64,000 nucleotides of DNA from Acidimicrobiales bacterium (GCA_038206295.1 JBBRAZ010000002.1:39267-103266); one strand, 5' to 3'; positions 18,839-61,400 are shown, numbered from the stretch's first letter. Made by a program: numbers and translations. Notes: a model not told the origin generated them from the letters alone.

Positions 18839-19300
18839 TCAGGGGCGGGGGGTGCGCAGGCCGTCGCCGGCGCGCCAGGCCGCCCAGGCTCCCGTCGACC
18901 AGAGCGCCCACGCCACGAGGACGGGCTGGAACACCAGCCGCACGGCGCGCGCCGTGTCCGAGTCGAGCCCGAACGCGTCGTCGCCATCGACGAACTGCGA
19001 GATGTTGCCGGGGAAGACGGCCACGAAGAACGCGGCGACGACCCAGCCGACGAGCACCCGCTGGCGAGCGAGCAGGATCAGCGCGGCGCCCAGCACCAGC
19101 TCGACGACGCCTGACACCACGACGATGACGTCGGGGTCGAGCGGCATCCAGTCGGGCACCTGGGCCTGGAACTCGGTGCGAGACGAGAAGAGGCGCCCCC
19201 TGCCCGCGGCGAGCAGCGCGACGCCGAGCAGGATGCGCAGCGCGAGCTGCACGCGGCGCGTCGCGGTGCTCGACTCGGCCTCGGCTCCCGAGGCGCCCAT
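18839..19300 (-). CDS. DoxX-like small integral membrane protein
   Basis: It has four hydrophobic segments and a VFPGNISQ motif. Its ATG (19300-19298) overlaps the upstream stop by 1 nt (ATGA). Confidence 0.55.
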   Translation of the reverse strand: MGASGAEAESSTATRRVQLALRILLGVALLAAGRGRLFSSRTEFQAQVPDWMPLDPDVIVVVSGVVELVLGAALILLARQRVLVGWVVAAFFVAVFPGNISQFVDGDDAFGLDSDTARAVRLVFQPVLVAWALWSTGAWAAWRAGDGLRTPRP

Positions 19301-19962
19301 CAGGTGACCGGCTGCTTCCAGGCGTTGAGGTAGGTGACGTCGCGCACCGATCGGAGTGGCGCGGGGTGGAAGTCGTCGCCGGTGTAGTAGCCGACGGCCA
19401 GCAGGCAGACCTGGGTGACCGTGGAGGGGATGCCGAGGTGCTCGGCGACCTCGGCCTCGTGCTCGAGGTGGAACGTCGTCCACGCCGAGCCGATGCCTCG
19501 GGCGCGCGCCGCGAGCTGGAAGCTCCACACGCCGGGGAGCACCGAGCCGTAGTAGGCGGCGGCCTGGCCCTGCGAGCTCTCCGGTGGCGGACGATCGAGC
19601 CGCATCGCCAGCACGAGGGCGGGGACCTCGGCGAGGTGGTCGACGAGGAAGGCGGCCGAGTCGAGCACGCGGCGGCTCCGCTCGTCGGCGGCGATCTCGG
19701 CGTTGAACCTGAGGTAGGGGCGGCCGACGTCTGCGAAGCGCTCAGCGATGAACGCCTTCGTGTCGGGGTCGTCGATGATCAGCCACCGGTTGCGCTCGAG
19801 GTTGCCGCCCATCGGCGCGTGCCCGGCGAGCTCGATGCAGGCCAGCAGCTCGTCGTGGGGGACGGGTCGCTCGAGGTCGAGGCGCTTGCGCACCTGCTTG
19901 GTGGTGGTGAGCAGCCGATCGACCTCGTCGAGGTCGAAGCCGGTGCGCTCGTTGGTGGCCAT
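19300..19962 (-). CDS. nitroreductase family protein
   Basis: RKRLDLERPVPHDELLACIELAGHAPMGGNLERNRWLII is typical of FMN nitroreductases. The start is taken at MATNE; the ORF opens at 20016. Confidence 0.85.
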   Translation of the reverse strand: MATNERTGFDLDEVDRLLTTTKQVRKRLDLERPVPHDELLACIELAGHAPMGGNLERNRWLIIDDPDTKAFIAERFADVGRPYLRFNAEIAADERSRRVLDSAAFLVDHLAEVPALVLAMRLDRPPPESSQGQAAAYYGSVLPGVWSFQLAARARGIGSAWTTFHLEHEAEVAEHLGIPSTVTQVCLLAVGYYTGDDFHPAPLRSVRDVTYLNAWKQPVT

Positions 19963-20020
19963 CGCGGGCTCCCGTCGTCGTGTCGCTGGGGTGAGTCTGC
20001 CCGCGACCCTGGTCACGGCC

Positions 20021-20839
20021 TCAGTCGATGAGGGTGTTGGCGAAGATCTGCCACGCCAGGAGGCTCTTGGCGACGAGGCTCAGCACGATGTAGGTGCTCT
20101 CGCCGAACGCGTAGTCCGCCCATCGCCCCACCCGGCGGTACTGCAGCCACTGGTTGACGGCGAAGCAGTTGAACAGGACGAAGATCGTCCCGATGATCCC
20201 GTAGACGAAGCTCGGCGGGCCCTGGCCACCCGGCTGGCTCACGTTCACCCACAGGTAGGTGGCGATGGCGAGCCACGGCCCGATGCCCGCGATGCACCCG
20301 AACCAGAACGGCGCCCACCACGTCTTCGTGCGCTCGGGCGGGTTCGCCACCTCCATGATCCAGCCGAAGAGGATCATGGCCACGTTGGCGAACGCGATGG
20401 CGATCAGCGCGGCGAGGTCGGTCACGCCGGTGACCAGCGCGATGAGCACGATCATCAAGGTGGCCGACAGCGAGTACTCGACCCATCGGAACCGGTTGCG
20501 CCCGGCGCGCAGCTCCTCCGCGTAGCGGGGGAAGCCCACCGGCGACGCGATCAGCAGGTGGAAGAGCGCGGAGAGGAAGAGGAAGCCGGCGGTGGCCAGC
20601 CCGATCGGCACCCCGCCGAGGTCGTTGAGGTTGCCGTCGGCCAGCGGGGTGCCGGGCGGGCCGTTGAGCGCCAGGCTCGAGACCGAGAGCTCGAAGTCGT
20701 TCGACAGGGCGACCATGGCCAGCCCCGACACCAGGTGCACCGCGCCGGCGACGCTGTTGCGCATCCGGAGCTTGCGCAGCCGGTCGTCGCTGATGACGTG
20801 CTGGGAGTCGTCGCTCGTGTCGCTGCGCTGGTCGGCCAT
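20021..20839 (-). CDS. heliorhodopsin (retinal-binding 7-TM photoreceptor)
   Basis: Motifs shared with heliorhodopsin 48C12 as I recall it: ALSNDF, LNGPPGT, SALFH, FRWVEYSLSA, ILFGW, FWFGCIAGIGPW, FVYGII. The Schiff-base lysine context is YIVLSLVAKSLLAWQIF. Confidence 0.9.
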   Translation of the reverse strand: MADQRSDTSDDSQHVISDDRLRKLRMRNSVAGAVHLVSGLAMVALSNDFELSVSSLALNGPPGTPLADGNLNDLGGVPIGLATAGFLFLSALFHLLIASPVGFPRYAEELRAGRNRFRWVEYSLSATLMIVLIALVTGVTDLAALIAIAFANVAMILFGWIMEVANPPERTKTWWAPFWFGCIAGIGPWLAIATYLWVNVSQPGGQGPPSFVYGIIGTIFVLFNCFAVNQWLQYRRVGRWADYAFGESTYIVLSLVAKSLLAWQIFANTLID

Positions 20840-21016
20840 CTGGTGGTCCTCGTCGTCGCGGTCGGTCTCTGCGGGAGGCGACGAGGCTCAGTATGCCGGG
20901 GGGACTCGGCTGGTCCTACGGCTGGGTGGCTTGTGTGCGAGAAGGGCCGCTCCCGACACAGTGGTGCGCTCGCCGTTCGAGCGGCGCTGGCTCAGCAGCG
21001 CGTCACGATGGCCGCG

Positions 21017-21373
21017 TCACCCGAAGATCGAGATCGCCGTCATCAAGATGCCGAGCGAGGCGAACGTACCGACGCTGCACCTGTACAGCGCGGTGTTGAT
21101 GTCGGCGCGGACCGTTTCCTCGAACTTGTCGAAGCGGAGATCCACGCGAACCTCGAATGCGCGCAGGTCGGCATCGACGGTGTCGATGCGGTGGCCGAGG
21201 CGCTCCTCGGTGCTGCGCAGGTCGCCGCGGACTTCGGCGATGTCGGCTTTGGTGGCGACGTCGGCCCAGCCGACGGGTGGGAGGTGCTCGGCGAGCGTCA
21301 TCGCCTCATCCTCGCCGATCGCGGCGCGGAGCGCCTCGAGCATCGTGTGGCGGCTCGCTTCGGTGATGGCCAT
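21017..21373 (-). CDS. small tail-anchored coiled-coil membrane protein, paralog A (DUF1640-like)
   Basis: The RBS is AGAAGGA. The segment VATKADIAEVRGDL is present. It has one C-terminal TM helix (GTFASLGILMTAISIFG). Confidence 0.7.
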   Translation of the reverse strand: MAITEASRHTMLEALRAAIGEDEAMTLAEHLPPVGWADVATKADIAEVRGDLRSTEERLGHRIDTVDADLRAFEVRVDLRFDKFEETVRADINTALYRCSVGTFASLGILMTAISIFG

Positions 21374-21473
21374 CGTCGCGGGTCCTTCTGGTTGGACGGT
21401 CGGGAGGGAGGCTCGGGGGAAGGGAGCTCGGCCACGGATGCCTCCAAGGTGTGCTCGCTCGGCGTGGCGACTG

Positions 21474-21542
21474 CCAACCGGCGGTTGTGCTCATCGTAGC
21501 AGGGGGGTGCGACGTTCTCGCCCGACACACGTGAGAAGTGTG
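21474..21542 (-). promoter_or_regulatory. conserved 69-nt upstream element, copy A (putative promoter plus palindromic operator or 5' stem-loop)
   Basis: About 61 of 69 positions are identical to 24660-24728 by hand alignment. In gene orientation it reads CACACTT-N37-TACGAT-N5-CACAACCGCCGGTTGG. Confidence 0.5.
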
Positions 21543-21559
21543 GATCGCTCGGCGCGAGC

Positions 21560-24094
21560 TCAGCCTTCGATGCGCTCGGCGACGAGCTCGATGAGCTGCT
21601 GGAAGGTGGGGCGGTTGGTGGTGCGCATCGTGTCCTTGATGAGCCCGGGCTCGAAGCCCGTCCGCCAGCCCTCGGCCAGCCACGTCTCGGGGTCCTCGCT
21701 GCCGTGCTCCTCGGCCAGGTCCGCGGCCACCGTGTCGATGGCGGCCCACAGGTCCGCCTGGCAGTCCTCGATCACGCCGCCTCCGCAGTACTGGAGGTTG
21801 AACGGCCCGTCGACGTCCTCGCCGAGCAGGGTGCGCAGGTCCTTGTCGAGGATGCTGGCGCCGTTGGAGCCCCGCAGGCCGCGGCGCTCGTAGACGTTGG
21901 GGCTCTGCTCGCCGAAGACGGGCTCGATGGCGGCGAGCACCATCGGCTCCCACAGGGCCTCGACGATGGCGGGCCCGGCGTGGTCGAACGTGCCGTCGTC
22001 GTCCGCGTCCAGGGCGGGGGCGTCGTCGGCCACCCACTCGTCCAGCAGGTCGACGACGGCCTGGGCCTCGGCCGACGGCGCCTCGCCGCCGGCAAGCAGC
22101 TCGCTGACCACGGGCCACACCAGCGAGTTGGGCAGCTCGGTGGCGGAGCGGTTCATGACGCCCACCACCCCGGCGAGATCCGTCTGCTCGGGCCACTGGT
22201 CGAACAGCTCGACGCGGTGCACCGAGCCGAACGACTCGCCGTCGCCGTGCATGAACCCGGGAGCGGACTGGTTGTTCCAGTTGAGCAGCCGGTGGTCGTC
22301 GCCGGCGGTGCCGTGCGGGTGGTCGTCGCGCTCGAGGAAGCCCTGCCACTCGTAGTCGCCGGTGCCGAGCGTCGGCAGGCGGCGATCCAGACCCTCGGGT
22401 CGCACGGGCAGCTGGCCGGAGGAGAAGTAGGCGACGTCGCCGCGCCCCACCCAGCCCCAGTTGAACGTGAACCCGAACCGGTTGGCGGTGTCGTAGAACG
22501 CGTCCGCGGTGGCGGCCTCGCCCTCGGTCATGCGCTTGAGGGCGGCGAGGTTCATGGCGTCGCGCCCGAAGGTGGAGCGCTTGCGGGTGAGCGCTACGGG
22601 CCGGCCGTCGGAGGTGGCGGTGGCGATGACGGGGCCGTGCACCGAGGTGGGGTAGCTGACGGGCTTCCCATCCAGCGTGCCGGCGTCGAAGATCTCGAAC
22701 GGGCGGCACTCGCCCTCGAACTCGTAGTGGTCCGACTCGATCGTGGGCTCGGCGCCGTCGGGCTCGCAGAGGATCTCGGCGTACACGTCGCGCACGTCGT
22801 GGCCGGCGGAGGTGAGGCTCCAGGCGTAGTCCTGGGTGCGCCCGATGAGGATGTACATGGCGAGGCCGGGCACCGCAGCGCCCTGGGCCTCGATGCCGGG
22901 GCCCGACAGGTGGATCTGCTGGACGATCTCCGGGTAGAAGTAGCCGAGCTGCGGGCCGAGCACGCCGAGCGTCGTGCCGTTGACCGATGCTTCCTGGTCG
23001 ACGAGCAGCCAGTTGGAGGCGTGGCGGTCCGGCGGCTGCTGAGCGGCCTCGAAGCGGCCGTCGCCCGCGGCGCCGCCGCCGCCGGCGGTGGCGTCGAACG
23101 AGGTGATGCTGCCGGCGTCGATGGCGACCGATCCGGTGACCTCGCCGCCGGTCAGTGCCGGGTAGTCGAAGGTCTCGGTCAGGGTGGTGGGGGCCTCCGG
23201 GTCGCCGATGAGCATGACGTCCTCCCATGCCTCGCGGCCCGGGCCCTCGCCGAGGCCGCCCTGGAGGGTGGCGAGCAGCTCGGCGTTGTCGGCCTCCGAG
23301 CCGCCGCCGGCGCCGAAGATCGACCCGATGAACGACGTGGCGCCGATGATGTCGTTGACCGTGGCGGGCGCCTTGCCGGGGTCGTTCTCGGCCCAGTAGG
23401 CCGAGGCGCCATCGGCGTAGGCCTGGGCATCGGCGACGATCTCCTCGCCCTCGGGGCCGAGCTCCTCGACGAGCAGGTCGACCTGGTCGGTCAGCAGCTG
23501 CTCGGTGGCCTCGCTCGGGATGAACTGGCGCGCCGAGGTGACGAGGCCGAAGGCGTCGACGCCGGGGATGTCGGCCACCGCGGCGCGCGACGGGCCGCGG
23601 GCGAGGTCGAGCAGCAGGCCGCGGTCGCGCGCGGTCACCCAGCCGGCGCCGAAGGCGAGGTCCTCGCGGGTCTCGCCGGTGATGTGGGCGACGCCGTAGG
23701 AGTCATACAGGATCGTGACGCCGTCGCGGCCGGTGGGCTCCTCGTTGGTGTCGCCGACGGGGGCGAAGTCCTGCGGGAGGAAGTGCTCCTCGATGTCGGC
23801 GTCGGTGACCTCGCCGCGCAGTGGGGTGAGGCCGTCGTAGAGGGGGAGCTGGTCGAGCGAGTGCTCGGTGGTGGGGATGCCGCCGTAGTTGCCGGGCGGG
23901 AGGATGTAGAAGGAGCGGTCGACGGCGTCGGGGCTCTGGCCCGTGCCGGCGGTCGTGGTGGTGGCCTCGTCGGCCGACGGCGTGTCGTCGTCGGAGCACG
24001 CGGCGGCGAGCAGCGCCGCGACGGTGAGCAGGGCCGCAGCCCGGGCTCGCTTGGAGGCCCGAGTCGACGGGCGAGGTTCGAAGCTTCGGCGCAC
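21560..24094 (-). CDS. penicillin acylase (penicillin amidase / Ntn-hydrolase) family protein, secreted lipoprotein
   Basis: 844 aa. Lipobox is LLAAACSDD. The Ntn nucleophile context is HASNWLLV. Confidence 0.85.
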   Translation of the reverse strand: MRRSFEPRPSTRASKRARAAALLTVAALLAAACSDDDTPSADEATTTTAGTGQSPDAVDRSFYILPPGNYGGIPTTEHSLDQLPLYDGLTPLRGEVTDADIEEHFLPQDFAPVGDTNEEPTGRDGVTILYDSYGVAHITGETREDLAFGAGWVTARDRGLLLDLARGPSRAAVADIPGVDAFGLVTSARQFIPSEATEQLLTDQVDLLVEELGPEGEEIVADAQAYADGASAYWAENDPGKAPATVNDIIGATSFIGSIFGAGGGSEADNAELLATLQGGLGEGPGREAWEDVMLIGDPEAPTTLTETFDYPALTGGEVTGSVAIDAGSITSFDATAGGGGAAGDGRFEAAQQPPDRHASNWLLVDQEASVNGTTLGVLGPQLGYFYPEIVQQIHLSGPGIEAQGAAVPGLAMYILIGRTQDYAWSLTSAGHDVRDVYAEILCEPDGAEPTIESDHYEFEGECRPFEIFDAGTLDGKPVSYPTSVHGPVIATATSDGRPVALTRKRSTFGRDAMNLAALKRMTEGEAATADAFYDTANRFGFTFNWGWVGRGDVAYFSSGQLPVRPEGLDRRLPTLGTGDYEWQGFLERDDHPHGTAGDDHRLLNWNNQSAPGFMHGDGESFGSVHRVELFDQWPEQTDLAGVVGVMNRSATELPNSLVWPVVSELLAGGEAPSAEAQAVVDLLDEWVADDAPALDADDDGTFDHAGPAIVEALWEPMVLAAIEPVFGEQSPNVYERRGLRGSNGASILDKDLRTLLGEDVDGPFNLQYCGGGVIEDCQADLWAAIDTVAADLAEEHGSEDPETWLAEGWRTGFEPGLIKDTMRTTNRPTFQQLIELVAERIEG

Positions 24095-24177
24095 AGTTCC
24101 CCCTGCGGTCGGCCTACGCAGCCGAGGCTAACGGGGGGCGGTGCGGGACCGACGACAGGGCCGGCGGGTGGGGCAGC

Positions 24178-24612
24178 TCAGCCGAAGGCGGCAGCGACTG
24201 CCGTGCCGACCGCGACCGCCGTGAGGATCGTTCCGATCGTCTGGATGTGCAGCCGCTTCATCTCGTCTCGCAGCGATCCGTCGAGCGATGCCATCTCCGT
24301 GCGGAGCGAGCCGCTGAGCGTGCCCATCTCCGTGCGGAGCGAGCCCATCTCCTTGCCGAGCGAGCCGCCGAGCGTCGCCATCTCGGTGCGGAGATTGCCG
24401 CCGAGCGTGGCCATCTCGGTGCGCAGCTCGCCGCCGAGCGCGGCAACCTCGACGCGGACCTTGGCGAGCTCCGCCTCGAGATGGTCCTTCGTGACGAGCT
24501 CGTCCCGGTCGTGCGTTGGGAGCTCTGCCATGAGGGCCTCCGACACCTCCTCGCCGAAGACAGGCACGAGGTGCTGATGAACGATGGTGCGGTGCTGCTG
24601 GGACAGGGTCAT
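24178..24612 (-). CDS. small tail-anchored coiled-coil membrane protein, paralog B, with internal 11-aa repeats
   Basis: The start at MTLSQQHRT has the RBS GAAGGAA. The C-terminal TM helix is IGTILTAVAVGTAVAAAFG. Confidence 0.7.
   Translation of the reverse strand: MTLSQQHRTIVHQHLVPVFGEEVSEALMAELPTHDRDELVTKDHLEAELAKVRVEVAALGGELRTEMATLGGNLRTEMATLGGSLGKEMGSLRTEMGTLSGSLRTEMASLDGSLRDEMKRLHIQTIGTILTAVAVGTAVAAAFG
24259..24444. repeat. in-frame tandem repeat inside paralog B (five 33-nt units plus one 21-nt unit)
   Basis: On the + strand each unit starts with CATCTC, at 24259, 24292, 24325, 24346, 24379 and 24412. The repeat encodes LGGxLRTEMAT-type 11-mers. Confidence 0.85.
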
Positions 24613-24659
24613 CGTGATGGTTCCTTCGCCTGAGGTCAAGGGGTCGAGGGGAAGTGACG

Positions 24660-24728
24660 CCAACCGGCGGTTGTGCCCACCGTAGCAGGGGGGTGCGACG
24701 ATTCCGATCGTCACACGTGAGAAGTGTG
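24660..24728 (-). promoter_or_regulatory. conserved 69-nt upstream element, copy B
   Basis: It has the same length and end motifs as copies A and C. It ends 47 nt upstream of the start codon at 24612. Confidence 0.5.
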
Positions 24729-24811
24729 AAGGACCTGGGGGCGATCCACGGCACACCAGTCATGTTGCGAACAGTCGTTCCATATCTGAGCGACGGAGGG
24801 GTCGGCCCCTC

Positions 24812-25345
24812 TCACTCGGCGGTTGGGCCCTGGCGGGCGAGGATCCCCTCGAGGAGGAACGAGACTCGCGCCTCGATCGGCCGGGTTCCGTAGAAGCGCT
24901 CGACGAGGTCGAGTCCCTGGTCGACGTCCTCGATGCCGCAGAGGTCGGCGAGGAGCGCGATGTCGTCCTCGTCGCGAGCGACCCGACTCGCGAGGAGCTT
25001 CGTGGCGAGCATGTACTCCGGCGACGCGGCGGAGACGGTGAGGTTGTCGCCCTCGTAGACGACGCGACGCGGTCCAGGATCGTCTCCAGGGAGGAACCCC
25101 TTCACGCTGTCGTTCAGCCAGTCGTGGTCGAGATCGTCGTGGTGCTCCGCGACACGCTCGGCCGCGTCGCGGATCTCCGACGAAGGTCGCCAGATGCCAT
25201 CCACGTCTCGGGTGGCCGGACGAGCGTCGTAGGCGACTGCCATCGCGGCGCCGCCGACGATGAACAGGTCGCCGCGGACCCCGTGCACGGCCAGCTCGGA
25301 GTCGAGCTCGCCGAAGAGCTCGAGGATGCGCTCCTTGGTCAGCAC
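24812..25345 (-). CDS. nucleotidyltransferase-fold protein (DUF6036-like), putative toxin partner
   Basis: The NTase-type motif is FIVGGAAMAVAYDARPATRDVDGIW. It lies 8 nt downstream of the HTH gene. Confidence 0.6.
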   Translation of the reverse strand: MLTKERILELFGELDSELAVHGVRGDLFIVGGAAMAVAYDARPATRDVDGIWRPSSEIRDAAERVAEHHDDLDHDWLNDSVKGFLPGDDPGPRRVVYEGDNLTVSAASPEYMLATKLLASRVARDEDDIALLADLCGIEDVDQGLDLVERFYGTRPIEARVSFLLEGILARQGPTAE

Positions 25346-25352
25346 GCCGACC

Positions 25353-25937
25353 TCACACGTTCACCAGCGAGGCGCGGTGGATGTACACGCCGTGTCGCTG
25401 GAACGAGACCGGACTCCCTGCGTACTCCGACGCCCGCAGCGACCTCATGGGCGTCACCCACCACGCACGGTCGAGGAATCGATCCGGCTCGTCGACCCAG
25501 GCCGGTGCCGGGAGGCTGACGCGGACGGCGAGCCACTCCGCCAGCGCGGCGAGGAACGCGTCCCAGCGCCGATCGCCGGTGGGCGGCGGTGGGGTGAGGA
25601 GCGGCTCCACCCCCGGGGTTGCCGCACGGAGGAACCGCGAAGCCAGCTCCGCCGAGCGCCGGACGGGGGTTGCGATGTCGTCTGGGTCGGCGTCGACGTC
25701 GGCGCTGATGGCGCGCGCCAGTCCTGCGAGCGTGGACGGGTCGGTCACGCTGCGCACGTCCAGGCGCTCGCCGGTGGCTGCAACCAGGCGCGCCAGCATC
25801 GCGACGGTGGGCTCGAGGCGTCCCCGCTCGATCCGATGCACCGTGCTGGGCGAGACCTGCGCAGCGTGCGCCAGCTCCCTGATGGACAGGTGAGCGCTGG
25901 CTCGAGCCTCGATGAGGACCGCCGATGCAGTGGACAT
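25353..25937 (-). CDS. XRE-family helix-turn-helix protein, putative antitoxin/regulator
   Basis: The HTH is SIRELAHAAQVSPSTVHRIERGRLEPTVAMLARL. Only the last 194 codons of the 25353..26786 ORF look genuine. Confidence 0.7.
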   Translation of the reverse strand: MSTASAVLIEARASAHLSIRELAHAAQVSPSTVHRIERGRLEPTVAMLARLVAATGERLDVRSVTDPSTLAGLARAISADVDADPDDIATPVRRSAELASRFLRAATPGVEPLLTPPPPTGDRRWDAFLAALAEWLAVRVSLPAPAWVDEPDRFLDRAWWVTPMRSLRASEYAGSPVSFQRHGVYIHRASLVNV

Positions 25938-25986
25938 GCTGTAAGCGTATACGCCTACAGCATCGGAGGAAACCCTCATCTGTGGG

Positions 25987-27027
25987 TCAGCAGCCGATGC
26001 CGTTGGCTGCTTGTGCTTGGCGGACGCGCAGGTCGGCGATCTGGGTCTGCAGCGAGGTGATGGCCTGCACGAGCGACAGGCGGCGGGCCCGCTCGCCGCG
26101 CAGGAGGTCCTCGGCCGTGGCCCGCACGCCGGCGTTGGCGGGAGTGGCCGGCATGGCTGCGAGCTGGGCTTCGAGCAAGCGGATCTGCCCCTCGACGGCG
26201 CGCACCTGCGCCTCGAGCGAGGCGCGCTGGCCCTGGAGCGCTGCGATGGCGGCGTCGTAGGCCTGGGTGGTGGCGTCGCACGGCGAGGTGATGCCCGCGG
26301 GACGCGAGCCGGCGACCGTGAGCAGCTGCGCGGGTGGGCGTGCGCCCGGCCGTGGTGGGGTGGATGCCGTCGGGGCCGGGCGTGAGGCGAGGCGTACAAC
26401 GCCGCGGACCGTGTGGCCGCGCACGATGATGCCGCCGACGACTGCGTCGCCCCCGGCGGCGAGCGGCTCGTCGATGCGCACCAGCGCGTCGGTGGGGCCG
26501 GCGGCGCGCAGCTGGTGCTCGCCGTCGGCGATGTCGGTGCCGGTGATCGTGACGTCGATCGGCGCCACCCTGCCGTTGCGAGCGGCGGTGGGCTCGATGG
26601 GCGGCCCTGTGAGGCGCGCGGCGCCCTCCGCGCTGCGCAGGTCGAGCGAGCCGTCGTCGCCGGCGGTGCCGGTGAGCCAGATGCCGCGCTGGCCGTCGCA
26701 GAGGTAGGCGACGGCCCCGCCGTCTCGGATGCCGAGCGCCACGAAGGGTTCGCCCGGCGCGTCGACGGCGTCGATGAAGCGTGCATCGAAGACGTCGATG
26801 TCGTGGGCGCCGGCGAGCGCGTCGAGTAGCTCGTCGTGCTGCGGACTGACGGACGTGGCGGGCGCGGTGTCGGTGGGCGCCGGGGAGTGCTCGGTGGTGG
26901 GCGCGGCGGGGGAGGTCGTCGAGGTGCTGGGCACAGCGTCGGGGTCGTCGTCGGCGGCGCACGAGGCGGCGATCGCCGCGGCGAGGAGCGCGCAGACGGC
27001 GCCCTTCACGCACCGACCTCGTCGCAT
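25987..27027 (-). CDS. lipoprotein of unknown function with C-terminal coiled coil
   Basis: Lipobox is AAIAASCAAD. The C-terminal heptad-like region is ALQGQRASLEAQVRAVEGQIRLLEAQL. Confidence 0.6.
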   Translation of the reverse strand: MRRGRCVKGAVCALLAAAIAASCAADDDPDAVPSTSTTSPAAPTTEHSPAPTDTAPATSVSPQHDELLDALAGAHDIDVFDARFIDAVDAPGEPFVALGIRDGGAVAYLCDGQRGIWLTGTAGDDGSLDLRSAEGAARLTGPPIEPTAARNGRVAPIDVTITGTDIADGEHQLRAAGPTDALVRIDEPLAAGGDAVVGGIIVRGHTVRGVVRLASRPAPTASTPPRPGARPPAQLLTVAGSRPAGITSPCDATTQAYDAAIAALQGQRASLEAQVRAVEGQIRLLEAQLAAMPATPANAGVRATAEDLLRGERARRLSLVQAITSLQTQIADLRVRQAQAANGIGC

Positions 27028-27069
27028 GGCGGGAACCCTACGTCCGCCGTTGAGGGGCCGGCTGGCTCG

Positions 27070-27321
27070 CTACTTGGTGATGAACCCGACGAGGGCCATG
27101 CCGCCGATGATCGACCACACCACCGCGTACAAGGTGCGGATGTTGATGTCGTACATCGCACTCGTGAGCTTGGCGATCTCTGTGTTCACGAACCCGCTGG
27201 TCGCGGGCTTGTCGTGGTCCGTTAGGGGGAGCTCCTTCATGAGGGCCTCCGTCTCGGCGTCCCCGAGGATCGGCGCCAACTTCCGGTAGATGGTCGTGCG
27301 GTGCTGCGGGGAGAGGGCCAT
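27070..27321 (-). CDS. small tail-anchored membrane protein, paralog C
   Basis: The start at MALSPQHRT has the RBS GAAGGAG. The N-terminus resembles paralog B (M.LS.QHRT...EALM.ELP). It has a C-terminal TM helix. Confidence 0.65.
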   Translation of the reverse strand: MALSPQHRTTIYRKLAPILGDAETEALMKELPLTDHDKPATSGFVNTEIAKLTSAMYDINIRTLYAVVWSIIGGMALVGFITK

Positions 27322-27368
27322 CGCGAATGCTCCTTCACGTGATGTCGAGGCGCCGGCAGGTGGTTGCG

Positions 27369-27437
27369 CCAACCAATGGTTGTGGATACCGTAGCGCCCC
27401 GACGCGGCGGATCAGACGCTTACAATCAATAAGTGTG
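27369..27437 (-). promoter_or_regulatory. conserved 69-nt upstream element, copy C (divergent interior, conserved ends)
   Basis: It has the same 69-nt length. CCAACCAATGGTTGTG...ACCGTAGC...AAGTGTG is conserved. It lies 47 nt from the start codon at 27321, in a divergent intergenic region. Confidence 0.45.
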
Positions 27438-27547
27438 GAGATGGATCGATGGTCGAGGTGCAGCCTCTCGCGGCGCACGGGAGGTGCAAGTTCCGGGGTT
27501 GCGATTCTTTCGAATTGAGATACCCTTCGCTCGAGGAGGTTGTCACC

Positions 27548-28012
27548 ATGGCGACGTCGGCAGATGAGCGGACGATCCTGCCCCCCACTGAGTCGCTCCA
27601 GGAGCTCCAGGCATTGCTCGCACGGCAGGACGCCGCGCCGACGACCACGCTCTCAGGACCGAACGGCGAGCACCTCGTGCTGCCCCCTGAGGTGTTCGAG
27701 GTGCTCCGAGGCATCGTGGAGGCCATGGCCAGCGGCCAGGCGGTCACCATCGCGCCGGTGCACCAGCGGCTGACGACCCAGGAGGCGGCGGATCTGCTCG
27801 GCATCAGCCGCCCGACGCTGGTCAAGCTCCTCGAGGCCGGCGAGATCCCATTCGAGCAGCCAGGGCGCCACCGACGGGTTCGCCTCGCCGACGTGCTCGC
27901 CTACCGAGACCGCGCATCGGAGATGCGGCGAGAGGCGCTCGACCGGATGGTGGCGATCGCTGACGAGGCAGATATGTACGAGCGCACCGCTGCGCCACGA
28001 CGCACGCGCTGA
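27548..28012 (+). CDS. excisionase-family HTH DNA-binding protein, putative antitoxin
   Basis: The RBS is GAGGAGG. The HTH is LTTQEAADLLGISRPTLVKLLEAGEIPF. Confidence 0.75.
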   Translation: MATSADERTILPPTESLQELQALLARQDAAPTTTLSGPNGEHLVLPPEVFEVLRGIVEAMASGQAVTIAPVHQRLTTQEAADLLGISRPTLVKLLEAGEIPFEQPGRHRRVRLADVLAYRDRASEMRREALDRMVAIADEADMYERTAAPRRTR

Positions 28013-28018
28013 CCATCG

Positions 28019-28582
28019 GTGCGCTACACGGTCGTGCTCGACACGTGCGTCCTCTATCCGGCGCACCTCCGCGACACGCTCCTCCGGCTGGCTGAGCGAG
28101 GCTTGTATCGAGCGCTGTGGTCGCCGGACATCCTCGTGGAGCTTCGCCGCAACCTCATCGACGTGGGCATCACCCCCGTCGACGTTGATCGCCTGATCGC
28201 GGAGATGGGCTCGGCATTCCCCCATGCGTCGGTCTCCGGGTACCGATCGCTGATCGATGGCCTCACGTGCGATCCGAAGGATCGCCATGTCCTTGCCGCA
28301 GCGGTTCGCGCCGATGCCTCGGCGATCATCACCATGAACACCTCGGACTTCCCACCCGCGAGCGTCGACCCGTTCGACATCGAGGTGACCGATCCCGACC
28401 ACTTCCTGCTCGACCAGCTCGACCTGGCGCCCGAATCGGTCGTCGATGAGCTGGCCCGCCAGGCGGCAGCGAACAAGCGCGAGCCGAAGAGCGTCGCAAC
28501 CTTGCTTGATGCGCTGGCACGAGCGGGGGCGCCGGCCTTTGCTGACGAGGTCCGACGCGGGCTCCAGCGCTCGACGCGCTGA
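28019..28582 (+). CDS. PIN-domain ribonuclease, putative toxin
   Basis: The N-terminal acidic motif is VVLDTCVLY. DRHVLAAAV and a distal D are also present. It starts 7 nt after the HTH gene. Confidence 0.8.
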   Translation: MRYTVVLDTCVLYPAHLRDTLLRLAERGLYRALWSPDILVELRRNLIDVGITPVDVDRLIAEMGSAFPHASVSGYRSLIDGLTCDPKDRHVLAAAVRADASAIITMNTSDFPPASVDPFDIEVTDPDHFLLDQLDLAPESVVDELARQAAANKREPKSVATLLDALARAGAPAFADEVRRGLQRSTR

Positions 28583-46544: not shown

Positions 46545-46727
46545 CGCTCCGAGGCTACGGCCACCGCCGGCACGCCCGCTGATGTCCTACCCCCTGCGTA
46601 GGTTGCACTGCTGTTGCAGCGCGCTTGTGTTGCCGAGGTCGCTGTCCGATTGCCTCCCGAGGTGATGCCGTATGCTCAGTGGACAACTACTTTCAGAAAT
46701 TGCTGAACACTGCTATAGATTGAAGAT

Positions 46728-47750
46728 ATGGCAAGCCGGACGGCAGCGCGGCAACGGATCACGCACGATGACCAGCGGATCGTGGCCATGGCCACTGCAG
46801 CGGGCATCGCTGCTCAGCTCGGCGACGAGCGCGAGGTGACTGTGGGTGACCGGACGTTCCCACTCGAGATCGTGTCGGCCGACCGACGAAGCGTGGACAC
46901 GATCCTGGCGCAGCTGAACGCGGTGCCCGATGGCGCGGTTCGCCTCGTCGTCGGCACCACCAGCCCCGGGCTGCGCGCCGCGCTCGAGCGACGCCGCATC
47001 TCCTGGCTCGACGCGCGCGGCGTTGCGCACCTCGTCGCGCACGGGGTGGACCGCACCTTCGGGCAACCGAGGCGCCTCGATGTGGCCTCGGCTCGAGACC
47101 GGCCTGGTCTCCGCCTGGGCCACGCAACCGTGCGTGCTGTGCAGCTGGTGCTCGACGGTGCACTCGAGCAGTGGGGGGTCAGCGTGCTCGCCGACCGCTC
47201 TGCCATCAGCATGGGCAGCGCGTCGAACCTCCTGCACGGCCTCAGCCACCTGGGGTTCCTCGAGGCGGTGGGCGTCGCTCCGCACCTCCACTTCGAGGTC
47301 CGGGACCGCGCCGGCCTGGCCGAGTGGTTCCTGGCCCAGCCGGCGGTGCGAGCGCGCCGAGCCCGGGCCGAGGCGTTCGTCTACGCCCGAGATCCGCTGG
47401 ACCTGGCCCGCCGGCTGGCGCGTTCGACGATCGCCGACCAGATCGCCCTCAGCGGGGGCCTGGCAGCGGTGGTGTCAGGAGCCGGCATGACGGCGGTGCC
47501 CACCGCACGCGTCTGGGTCGACCCGACGCTCGATCTCGTAGATGCCATCGATGCACTCGAGGTCGACAGCACCAGCGCGGCGCCCAATGTCGTGCTGCTC
47601 CAGGACATCGGGCGGGTCGCGACGCTCGATCGCCGCGTCGTTGACGCGATCCCGGTGGCGCCCCCGAGCCGGATCTGGGTCGATCTGCACGACGAACCCC
47701 GCGGTGAGGACCAAGCCGTCATCTACCGAGAGACGTACGGTGCGTTCTGA
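46728..47750 (+). CDS. hypothetical protein, possible AbiEi-like antitoxin/regulator (inferred from context)
   Basis: It overlaps the downstream AbiEii-like gene by 11 nt. It is preceded by an AT-rich 180-bp intergenic region. Confidence 0.5.
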   Translation: MASRTAARQRITHDDQRIVAMATAAGIAAQLGDEREVTVGDRTFPLEIVSADRRSVDTILAQLNAVPDGAVRLVVGTTSPGLRAALERRRISWLDARGVAHLVAHGVDRTFGQPRRLDVASARDRPGLRLGHATVRAVQLVLDGALEQWGVSVLADRSAISMGSASNLLHGLSHLGFLEAVGVAPHLHFEVRDRAGLAEWFLAQPAVRARRARAEAFVYARDPLDLARRLARSTIADQIALSGGLAAVVSGAGMTAVPTARVWVDPTLDLVDAIDALEVDSTSAAPNVVLLQDIGRVATLDRRVVDAIPVAPPSRIWVDLHDEPRGEDQAVIYRETYGAF

Positions 47751-48642
47751 CGGCCATCGCATCGACGACTACAACCCGGCCACATCCGCGCTCCTCAGAA
47801 CCGAGGCGGTCCGCCTCCTGCGCGGCCTCGGCTTCATGGCGGAGCACCTGACGCTGATCGGTGGGATCGTGCCGGGCATGCTCGTGTTGGATCCGGCCGG
47901 GAGCCACGCCCACATCGGAACCTCGGACCTCGACCTCTGCCTGTCGGTCGCGCTGGCTGAGGGCAGGACCGGCCAGTACGAGGTCGCCGAATCGGCCCTG
48001 CGCGATCTCGGCTTCGTGCCGGCGGCGCTCGACGGCTCGGCACGCATCCTCTATCCGGCGTGGCGGTGGCGACGAGAGAGCGACGGCGTTCCTGTGGTCG
48101 TCGAGTTCCTGTGCCCGCTCACCGGTGACCGACCAGCCGGTCACGTCGTCGGTGAGCAGCAGCTGGCGACCACCTCGCTCGGCGAGAGGCTCGGCGCGCT
48201 GGTGCTCACCGATGGTGCGCTCATCAGCCACGATCGCGTCGAGGTCGACACCACCGTCGTGCTCGATGACGGCGAGCTCACGTATCCGCTGCCCGTGGCC
48301 GGGTACGCCTCGTTCCTCGCCACCAAGGCCACCGCTCTGCAGCGGCGGAACAAGCGGAAGGATGCCTACGACGTCGTCTGGCTTCTCGAAGCGCACCCCG
48401 ATGGGCCCGAGGGTGTCGCCGCTGAGGTCCGACGCTCGAAGATCTGGCGCGATCCGTCGCTTCGCTCGTCGCTCGAGCAGCCGTATCGCGTGCTGAAGGA
48501 GCAGTTCGACACCACAACAAGCAATGGTGCCGGGGCCTACTCGATGTTCCTTGCCGCAGACGGGACTGAGCGTGAGCGCGCGCACCTCCGAAGTCGATCG
48601 GTCGGCGCGGTCCGGATCCTGTGCGGTGAGCTGCAGATCTGA
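47740..48642 (+). CDS. AbiEii/AbiGii-like nucleotidyltransferase toxin family protein
   Basis: The motifs LTLIGGIVPGML...IGTSDLDLCL and RNKRKDAYDVVWLL are present. The start is taken at GTG 47740. Confidence 0.65.
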   Translation: MRSDGHRIDDYNPATSALLRTEAVRLLRGLGFMAEHLTLIGGIVPGMLVLDPAGSHAHIGTSDLDLCLSVALAEGRTGQYEVAESALRDLGFVPAALDGSARILYPAWRWRRESDGVPVVVEFLCPLTGDRPAGHVVGEQQLATTSLGERLGALVLTDGALISHDRVEVDTTVVLDDGELTYPLPVAGYASFLATKATALQRRNKRKDAYDVVWLLEAHPDGPEGVAAEVRRSKIWRDPSLRSSLEQPYRVLKEQFDTTTSNGAGAYSMFLAADGTERERAHLRSRSVGAVRILCGELQI

Positions 48643-60741: not shown

Positions 60742-60993
60742 ATGGCGATCAGCATCAAGAACGCCGAGGCCGACCGGCTGGCCCGTGAGCTCGCCGCAAC
60801 GACGGGGGAGTCGCTGACTGAGGCGATCCTGCAAGCGTTGCGCGAGCGGCTCGCTCGGCAGGAGCGGGCCCGCGGGCGCGGCATCGCAGGTCGACTCGAG
60901 CGGTTGGGGCGGGAGTTCGCTCAGCTGGAGGTGATCGACGCCCGCAGCGCGGATGAGATCCTCGGCTACGACTCCCACGGGTTGCCGACGTGA
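60742..60993 (+). CDS. vapB: VapB-type antitoxin (FitA/Rv0623-like)
   Basis: The N-terminus is MAISIKNAEADRLARELA. It overlaps the PIN gene by 4 nt. Confidence 0.8.
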   Translation: MAISIKNAEADRLARELAATTGESLTEAILQALRERLARQERARGRGIAGRLERLGREFAQLEVIDARSADEILGYDSHGLPT

Positions 60994-61400
60994 GCGCAGC
61001 CGACGTGGTGGTGATCGATACCTCTGCGGTCATCGCGATCCTCCAGGAGGAGCCGGGTGCCGCGGTGCTCGCCAGGGCGATGGAGAACGCTCACGTCCGT
61101 CTGCTCAGCGCCGCATCGTTCGTGGAGGCAGGGATCGTCCTCGAGGCTCGGGTCGGTCCAGCAGGCCAGGGCATGCTCGAGCGCTTCGTCGCCGATGGCG
61201 AGGTCGAGGTCATCTCGCTCACGCGGGTCCACGCGCGGGCCGCGGTCGACGGCTTCCGTCGGTATGGCAAGGGTCGCCACCCGGCGGCGCTCAACCTGGG
61301 CGACTGCTTCGTGTACGGATTCGCCGTGGAGGAGGACGCCACGGTCCTCTGCACCGGCGATGACTTCGCCCTGACCGACATCCCGGTCATCGCGGTGTAG
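60990..61400 (+). CDS. vapC: VapC-type PIN-domain toxin
   Basis: The PIN motifs are VVIDTSAVIAIL, LNLGDCFVYGFA and LCTGDDF. Confidence 0.9.
   Translation: MSAADVVVIDTSAVIAILQEEPGAAVLARAMENAHVRLLSAASFVEAGIVLEARVGPAGQGMLERFVADGEVEVISLTRVHARAAVDGFRRYGKGRHPAALNLGDCFVYGFAVEEDATVLCTGDDFALTDIPVIAV

Follow-up and report, generated by a model that had tools for sequence, protein, structure and literature searches.

In this study, we analyzed 64,000 nucleotides (nt) of DNA from an Acidimicrobiales bacterium (GCA_038206295.1 JBBRAZ010000002.1:39267-103266), referred to here as the window, which has a base composition of 70% G+C and contains three paralogous genes for small membrane proteins, A, B and C, each preceded by a copy of the same 69-nt element. 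Our results support the element being a real, discrete non-coding unit under selection, and we favor, with modest confidence, its interpretation as a lineage-specific promoter-operator module that co-regulates the three genes. The finding is of an ordinary kind, a promoter-operator arrangement. If this interpretation is correct, an uncultured lineage resembling Acidimicrobiia gains a cis-regulatory signature and a set of co-regulated genes that can be tested, namely those for three DUF1640-like membrane proteins and possibly for a heliorhodopsin, an amidase and a lipoprotein. A modest twist is that the module, whose surroundings differ in gene order from one close relative to another, appears to have been copied or homogenized between diverged paralogs.

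The three copies of the element lie on the minus strand, as do their genes, at 21474–21542 (copy A; 70 nt if a conserved C at 21473 is included), 24660–24728 (copy B) and 27369–27437 (copy C). These positions, which were obtained by pairwise alignment and nhmmer for all three copies and additionally by a repeat search for A and B, bear out a preliminary description of this DNA that had placed a 69-nt element before each gene. Computed identities were 61/69 for A and B, the same value as had been counted by hand (about 88%), 39/69 for A and C, and 43/69 for B and C. The repeat search independently returned a 70-nt direct repeat (21473–21542 and 24659–24728) of 89% identity, and the same 70 nt were the sole match (E 1.4e-22) when the whole A and B loci were compared by blastn, with no significant similarity between their coding sequences. 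In gene orientation each window copy consists of CACACTT, 37 nt, TACGRT, 3 nt and CACAACC-N3-GGTTGG. The motifs reported previously, including the palindrome CAACC-N3-GGTTG, are thus present in all three copies, and the distance of exactly 47 nt from the end of the element to the ATG that had been noted for B and C is correct; the corresponding distance for A is 100 nt. Exact matches to CACAACC-N3-GGTTGG in the 64-kb window number three, each inside a copy of the element, so within this stretch the motif does not show the random, gene-independent occurrence that would have spoken against its significance. A fourth match is reached only by allowing two mismatches, and at up to two mismatches 1.02 matches are expected by chance. 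An nhmmer profile search of the 64 kb likewise identified the three copies alone (E 1e-17 to 1e-23), the next match having an E value of 0.6.

Close relatives of protein C are rare, only three or four having been found among ~5.8 billion clusters, and the short contigs that carry them, L004 (88% amino acid identity to C), L005 (81%) and L017 (99%), all have the element before the gene. A second copy in L005 (L005b, positions 452–520) is of the B type and starts 39 nt past the C gene. It may be a decaying copy, as it has a degenerate hexamer (CACGAT) in place of TACGRT, its second palindrome ends in GGTTGC, its B-like leader breaks off into unrelated sequence, and no small open reading frame (ORF) follows before the contig ends. 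The set compared comprised seven copies (A, B and C of the window, L004a, L005a, L005b and L017a) from approximately four close genomes, and these align without gaps over 69 nt. Invariant or nearly so across the alignment are CACAC...TGTG, here termed inverted repeat 1 (IR1; CACA-N9-TGTG), a GC-TACGRT block, and CACAACC-N3-GGTTG, inverted repeat 2 (IR2), the arms of both repeats being constant in all seven copies except for one base in copy C. In contrast, the centers of both palindromes vary (GCC, ATT, TTT or GCT in IR2), as does a 27-nt spacer in which identity between lineages falls to 8–13/27 with no change in length.

In the window, IR1 is located at 21526–21542 in copy A (CACAC-N7-GTGTG), at 24712–24728 in copy B, where it was placed by profile alignment, and at 27421–27437 in copy C (CACA-N9-TGTA), where the single arm mismatch occurs, the orthologs having TGTG. 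The hexamer is TACGAT at 21493–21498 in A and TACGGT at 24679–24684 in B and 27388–27393 in C. The IR2 block occupies 21473–21489 in A (CACAACC-GCC-GGTTGGC, with the palindrome CAACC-N3-GGTTG itself at 21475–21487) and, as located by motif search and profile, 24659–24675 in B and 27368–27384 in C (CACAACC-ATT-GGTTGGC), all of these features being on the minus strand. The distance between the centers of IR1 and IR2 is 53 bp in every copy, approximately five helical turns, and both palindromes open with (C)CACA, whereas their right half-sites differ (TGTG versus TTGG). Specific arms, a free center and fixed spacing relative to a promoter, as expected of an operator, are therefore all seen in the seven-copy alignment.

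Among the orthologs of C, the block from the hexamer to IR2 is identical at 26–27/27 positions, the IR1 box at 12–15/17 and the spacer at 15–23/25 (60–92%); for comparison, the leader between element and gene is identical at 35–41/47 positions and the coding sequence at 89–93%, the leader and coding values being from the comparisons of C with L004 and L005. As judged from these alignments, the palindromes and the hexamer are a phylogenetic footprint of strong selection at fixed geometry. The footprint is confined to close relatives. No element was detected by nhmmer in the distant family members L001, L002, L018, L019 and L022–L038 (E>1), nor was one matched in L040 or L043. The pattern TACGNT-N3-CACAACC-N3-GGTTGG had 11 matches in GTDB representative genomes, for which our own estimate of chance occurrence is roughly 17, and the sole match in Acidimicrobiia, which was the one inspected (L008), has no IR1 and falls where a transporter ORF begins. 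There were no matches to that pattern in viral contigs and none to a stricter pattern in JGI metagenomes. For the public collections scanned, a wide distribution of the motif is ruled out by these chance-level and zero counts.

Several observations suggest that the element contains a promoter. The hexamer, read in gene orientation, has the actinobacterial −10 form TANNNT in six of the seven copies as TACGAT or TACGGT, the exception being CACGAT of L005b. A TANNNT hexamer is also present at the analogous place in 11 of 12 aligned leaders of distant B/C-type relatives, drawn from the metagenome relatives L022–L038 (L030 has TTCGCT), where it sits 5–9 nt upstream of a conserved C-rich box of the leader. 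Since TANNNT at a fixed place is improbable in G+C-rich DNA, this argues that TACGRT is a −10 with the transcription start just downstream, before the C-rich box. The element is always oriented toward its gene, and on the reverse strand the hexamer reads ATCGTA or ACCGTA, which is not −10-like. The intergenic region that holds copy C is divergent and must therefore contain the promoter of gene C, yet nothing in it apart from the element is conserved among orthologs. No TTGACA-like −35 was found 16–18 nt upstream of TACGRT, and the aligned −35 region is unconserved in the seven copies; many actinobacterial promoters have no −35. We infer that transcription proceeds from TACGRT with its start inside CACAACC, which would place IR2 across the start, at approximately −1 to +12, and IR1 at approximately −56 to −40.

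In such a promoter-operator module, TACGRT would act as an actinobacterial-type −10 (TANNNT) with no recognizable −35, and transcription would begin approximately 7 nt past it, inside CACAACC. The −10 would be flanked by the two palindromes with their fixed arms and free centers, and one dimeric or tetrameric regulator, or two regulators, could bind both sites so that the three genes, and possibly those downstream of them, are switched together. Occupation of IR2 would be expected to block RNA polymerase, while IR1 could serve for cooperative binding or looping or as an activator site. In the leaders of A and B, C-rich boxes resembling an anti-Shine-Dalgarno sequence would likely damp translation as well. 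The 53-bp spacing of the centers and the common (C)CACA mean that one factor could bind both palindromes, and we very tentatively suggest that the same factor does so. Shared regulation of the three genes appears to be the best reading of palindromes positioned on a promoter in this way.

A number of observations weigh against that interpretation, however. IR1 and IR2 have just the left half-site (CACA) in common, and no regulator gene is consistently linked to the element, the divergent neighbor of C being a pair of HTH_17 and PIN genes in the window versus a ribbon-helix-helix (RHH) gene in L004. A consensus scan of 20800–27700 returned no sigma-70-type site, an outcome attributable to there being no −35. 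Phylogenetic depth is shallow, with all seven copies coming from approximately four close genomes, and invariant arms alone do not distinguish a signal in DNA from one in RNA. In addition, the stretch from the −10 to the C-rich box contains additional, unrelated sequence in three distant relatives (L033, L025 and L031), which fits a role of IR2 as a 5′-terminal RNA hairpin. To our knowledge, neither palindrome convincingly matches the operators of IdeR, LexA, KstR, CRP/GlxR, NrdR, Rex or PadR.

The leaders that separate the element from the three genes are of different types. Each gene has the Shine-Dalgarno (SD) sequence GAAGGA 9 nt before its ATG (21383–21388 in A, 24622–24627 in B and 27331–27336 in C, minus strand), consistent with the strong ribosome binding sites noted previously. 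The B leader retains CACTTCCCC immediately past IR2 and contains the C-rich, anti-SD-like box CTTCCCC (24648–24654, minus strand), which is common to distant B/C-type relatives and older than the element; no such box is present in the C leader of the window. The A leader (21415–21445, minus strand) has a GGAG...CTCC hairpin (21423–21445) and a CTTCCCCC box (21415–21422), and resembles the leaders of distant A-type genes. In the latter, a common hairpin, (G)GGAGC-N3-5-GCUCC(C), with C/U-rich bases behind it (L001 at ~2950–2975, L002 at ~2945–2970 and L043 at ~2455–2480), pairs an SD-like strand to an anti-SD-like strand upstream of the real SD; the version in window A is looser.

In the distant B/C-type leaders the order is TA(C/G)NNT, 5–9 nt, CTTCCCC(C)TTC, ~25–30 nt, SD and start codon. 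By comparison, the B leader of the window appears to be ~17 nt longer from the −10 to the C-rich box, the additional bases being those of IR2. For the distant relatives, pairing of this box with the SD is predicted, and the two sequences change together, as in CCUUCGA-UCGAAGG (L022), CCUUCCU-AGGAAGG (L023), CCUCC-GGAGG (L034 and L029) and GGUCUUCC-GGGAGACC (L033). Composition-matched shuffles often pair with the SD too, so the statistics for individual sequences are weak. No Rfam match was obtained for these leaders, and the pairing of box and SD may represent a motif for SD sequestration, so far unrecorded, in the leaders of this gene family. As far as can be judged from these comparisons, the 69-nt module is set upstream of different, older, subfamily-specific leaders, which explains why its distance to the ATG is 47 nt for B and C and 100 nt for A.

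The preliminary description had allowed for either a shared regulator-binding site or an RNA structure, and our results fit the former part of that proposal. A known RNA family is ruled out by Rfam scans, as no match in the window reached the gathering score and 20 related loci had none at E≤0.1; at E≤1, the only match in 20900–27600 was a chance microRNA match within the amidase gene. The suggested covariance and folding analysis gave no support for an RNA structure of the element. With six copies of the element as input, RNAalifold returned a covariation term of +0.61, which is penalizing, with one double-changed pair in a weak middle helix, and none of the seven copies has a compensatory change in either palindrome. 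As the palindromes never vary, they are uninformative on pairing. A conserved RNA fold of the whole element is ruled out by this lack of covariation together with the weakness of the IR2 hairpin, which by itself has a stability of −4.7 kcal/mol with a 3-nt loop and appears in only some of the minimum free energy (MFE) folds of the leaders. IR1, being upstream of the −10, would lie outside a transcript from this promoter. Invariant arms beside free bases and a variable spacer of fixed length fit recognition by a protein better than an RNA stem. Nevertheless, IR2 could function in RNA as a 5′-terminal stem-loop that protects the mRNA from 5′-end-dependent decay or modulates translation together with the leader, in which case IR1 would be either incidental or a weak hairpin at which transcripts from upstream end. 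Such a role is kept alive as a rival by the extra sequence that L033, L025 and L031 have at the place of IR2, that of L033 folding as a 5′ hairpin. It would also suit the fixed stem and variable loop of IR2, the fold of the window B leader, in which C-G and G-C pairs beyond a bulged A lengthen the hairpin at the 5′ end, and a second hairpin of the C-type leaders (GGCGC...GCGCC), which overlaps the 3′ arm of IR2 and is kept in L005a and, by shifted pairing, in L017a. We consider it unlikely, however, given the low stability and short loop of the hairpin and its absence from the MFE structures of several leaders, and because the usual 7-nt distance from the −10 puts the start in the 5′ arm, truncating the stem. 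Furthermore, adjacent bases vary freely while the stem shows no compensatory change, and IR1, the invariant spacing of the two palindromes and the conserved non-pairing CA and GC flanks are left unexplained. A different sigma factor of the extracytoplasmic function (ECF) type, or a dedicated activator, might instead read the promoter through a GAAC/GGAT-like −35 situated ~17 nt before CGRT, with the palindromes being secondary. There is no housekeeping −35, and GAGAAC (A), CGGAAT (B) and CAGAAC (L005a) are found ~17 nt upstream of CGAT or CGGT; these bases resemble the ECF promoter pattern AAC...CGT. This alternative is decidedly improbable in our estimate, since the putative −35 is unconserved (CTGATC in C and L004a, and different again in L005b), the best-kept bases are those of the TANNNT-type hexamer and the palindromes, and distant relatives without the element use TANNNT too.

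The spacer is not under constraint, as that of C is only 60% identical to that of L005a even though their coding sequences agree at 89%, and the identity of B to its positional ortholog L005b is only 45/69 overall and 11/27 in the spacer. Yet A and B are identical at 21/27 spacer positions, including a 16/16 run (CGTCGCACCCCCCTGC), whereas their proteins are 23% identical, and the nucleotide likeness of A and B breaks off suddenly on either side of the element. The free spacer and the low identity of B to L005b lead us to infer recent copying, or homogenization by gene conversion, between copies A and B within this genome. The earlier statement that the non-coding sequence is more conserved than the coding sequence is true, also for the C lineage, in which the −10-to-IR2 block (26–27/27) exceeds the coding sequence (89–93%), but for A and B it overstates constraint, their 88% identity being in part the product of recent copying. 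That the module is more alike between diverged paralogs than between orthologs, by way of copying within the genome, is a caution against reading identity as pure constraint. The surrounding gene order also varies. In L017 the C gene directly adjoins the penicillin-amidase gene (94% identical to window 24143–23086, with the junction at L017 436–447), without a 2.9-kb block of the window (24143–27068) that carries the lipoprotein gene, the XRE and DUF6036 nucleotidyltransferase genes, element B and gene B. In L004 (304–768) the lipoprotein gene follows C, as in the window, and in L005 (413–520) C is followed by the B-type element. Potentially, then, the element could mark the 5′ limit of a cassette of small genes that recombines, or be a recombination target, in which case mobility or repeated recombination, and not regulation, would account for its spread and homogeneity. 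The differing cassette content of L017, L005, L004 and the window is in keeping with this, as are the indel between L005 and the window, whose edge falls precisely on the CACAC end of element B, the greater identity of B to A (61/69) than to its positional ortholog (45/69), and the sharp edges of the A-B similarity. We assign this possibility only a small probability, as neither terminal inverted repeats nor target-site duplications are present (the 3′ end, when reverse-complemented, is unlike the 5′ end, CACACTTCTC), the neighboring genes scanned include none for a recombinase or integrase, and the motif has no matches in viral contigs or JGI metagenomes, with a count near chance in GTDB; moreover, the L017 junction lies in 3′ flanks and not at an element, and oriented, sequence-specific conservation of a −10 is unexpected for a pure recombination site. 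A miniature inverted-repeat or other transposable repeat was rejected on the grounds that the ends are not mutually inverted and that the window holds only three copies. Nor does a functionless leftover of a recent segmental duplication account well for the data. The high identity of A and B even in the spacer, which is unconstrained in orthologs, is what such a remnant would show, but A and B have no significant nucleotide similarity in their coding sequences, so that a plain duplication would need to stop exactly at the element edges, the −10-to-IR2 block of the orthologous copies in three other genomes is better conserved than coding sequence, and copy C retains the same blocks at 57–62% overall identity. 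This explanation is largely refuted by the footprint pattern and in our view very improbable. A more far-reaching reading, which is speculative and rather unlikely, is that the 70-bp unit is a portable promoter-operator cassette placed before the unrelated ancestral leaders of different DUF1640-like subfamilies, homogenized by conversion and marking the edges of small-gene modules that very close relatives have gained, lost and reshuffled; if true, the heliorhodopsin operon, the penicillin-amidase-family lipoprotein and the other lipoprotein would be wired to one regulator.

Two similarities in the 3′ flanks of the genes were read by eye. The flanks of A and C (window 20966–20993 and 27040–27067, minus strand) share GAGCCAGC...C(T)C(G/A)AACGGCG, and a CC(A/C)GCCGGC-like motif is seen in those of C, B and relatives. 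These shared motifs could represent a common terminator or the end of a cassette.

The proteins encoded behind the element were compared with their homologs, beginning in each case from the ATG ORF. Gene A (21017–21373, minus strand) encodes a DUF1640-like protein of 118 residues with a two-helix head, the sequence VATKAD, one long helix and a C-terminal hydrophobic segment. The 144-residue product of gene B (24178–24612, minus strand) has a stalk formed by tandem repeats, approximately seven 33-nt units (24247–24465, minus strand) that correspond to 11-residue units of the type LRTEMATLGGx, and gene C (27070–27321, minus strand) specifies 83 residues with a B-like N-terminus and a very short middle; both proteins also end in a hydrophobic segment. 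Homologs numbered 624 for A, mostly from Acidimicrobiia-type metagenome bins, 18 for B and 3 for C, and two Actinomarinicola tropica homologs of A bear the UniRef name DUF1640. The names of homologs from other genomes point to an Acidimicrobiia-like actinobacterium as the source of the window. A fourth paralog, P0023 (107 residues), shares 53% identity with A and is listed for another part of the same 177-kb contig, outside the window. The related N-terminus proposed for B and C was confirmed, with 44% identity over 52 residues (E 1e-11), and A belongs to a different subfamily that is 23% identical to B and C. A C-terminal hydrophobic segment was likewise found in all three proteins as described (19 residues, Kyte-Doolittle mean 1.8–1.95). 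The coiled-coil middle that had been attributed to each of them does not extend to C, whose 83 residues leave almost no coiled-coil segment.

An alignment of 97 family members contains a near-invariant LPPVGWADVATKxD block, in which V-A-T-x-x-D is nearly invariant. In DUF1640 membrane proteins, a beta-layer motif of the form [aliphatic]-A-T-K-[polar]-[DE] opens the stalk (Hartmann et al., PMC4786415). The motif is present in A (VATKAD), partly so in B (LVTKDH) and absent from C (PATSGF), and the family profile matches PDB 6h9l through ATKEDI repeats. Of the two family assignments that had been suggested for checking, DUF1640 is supported at a remote level, PF07798 (CCDC90-like/DUF1640) being matched at E≤0.01 by 21 of the 97 members, and one homolog, P0021, passing with 49 bits; the Pfam gathering threshold is not reached by the window proteins, with no match for A and C and 18.8 bits versus a cut-off of 33.5 for B. 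XhlA (PF10779) is unsupported, having no match to A, B or C and one among the 97 homologs (E 0.002). In an AlphaFold model of A (pLDDT 88.6), a pair of short helices (residues 5–19 and 21–29) is followed by a loop and then by a single long helix (42–117). This, together with hydropathy in A, B and C, agrees with the head, long helical stalk and C-terminal transmembrane helix of the family. A Foldseek search of the PDB with the model returned chance-level matches only. On the strength of these profile and motif comparisons, the three proteins are remote members of the DUF1640/CCDC90-like family, with B and C degenerate.

Genes for proteins of other kinds follow each of the three on the minus strand. 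Downstream of A by 178 nt is a heliorhodopsin gene (20021–20839; PF18761, E 1.9e-95), directly after which is a nitroreductase gene (19300–20016). A penicillin-amidase family lipoprotein gene (21560–24094) is 83 nt downstream of B, and a gene for a putative lipoprotein of 346 residues (25987–27027) is 42 nt downstream of C. The module may also drive the heliorhodopsin-nitroreductase, amidase and lipoprotein genes, which are possibly co-transcribed with A, B and C, respectively. Heliorhodopsin was rejected as a conserved partner of A-type genes, as none was present in five other contexts (L001, L002, L040–42 and L043). Similarly, the lipoprotein is not a general partner of C; blastn places the beginning of the lipoprotein gene behind C in L004 but the amidase gene there in L017, and a tblastn search with the lipoprotein found nothing in L004, L005 or L017. 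On the other side of C, the divergent neighbor is the RHH gene in L004 and the HTH_17-PIN pair in the window, and since it differs, toxin-antitoxin (TA) modules would be variable inserts and not partners of the element. TA- and defense-like modules are dense in the window, comprising an XRE gene with a DUF6036 nucleotidyltransferase gene (24812–25937, minus strand), HTH_17 and PIN_3 genes (27548–28582, plus strand), another PIN gene (60957–61397, plus strand), and a weak IclR-type helix-turn-helix match (E 3.6e-4, below the Pfam cut-off) with AbiEii (46719–48639, plus strand). The third-position G+C of these modules is below that of the flanking housekeeping genes. Their density and lower third-position G+C suggest a variable genomic region.

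The features described here have counterparts in several known systems. The proteins resemble the trimeric coiled-coil DUF1640/CCDC90-like family (PF07798; MCUR1/CCDC90B) in having a small head, the motif, a helical stalk and a C-terminal membrane helix (PMC4786415), but differ in that C is almost without a stalk, A and C have no Pfam match, and the motif is altered in B and C. At the level of the leaders, SD-sequestering hairpins and 5′-terminal stabilizer stem-loops, as generally known, are comparable to the pairing of box and SD in relatives, to the boxes in the A and B leaders, and to the 5′ hairpin that IR2 could form. The difference is that the box is separate from and older than the 69-nt element and is not found in leader C. 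Promoter-bearing dispersed repeats undergoing concerted evolution also have sharp-edged units of ~70 bp, structural variation nearby, and copies that are more alike within a genome than positional orthologs are. Unlike these repeats, the element is without terminal inverted repeats or target duplications and is seen before one gene family only. The actinobacterial −10-only promoters with operators of the TetR, XRE or MarR type offer a further comparison. Neither palindrome of the element fits an operator consensus that we know of from such systems. The likenesses include a TANNNT −10 without a −35, a short perfect palindrome with a variable center just downstream of the −10, an upstream palindrome at fixed helical phasing, and the repetition of the module before several genes, as in a small regulon.

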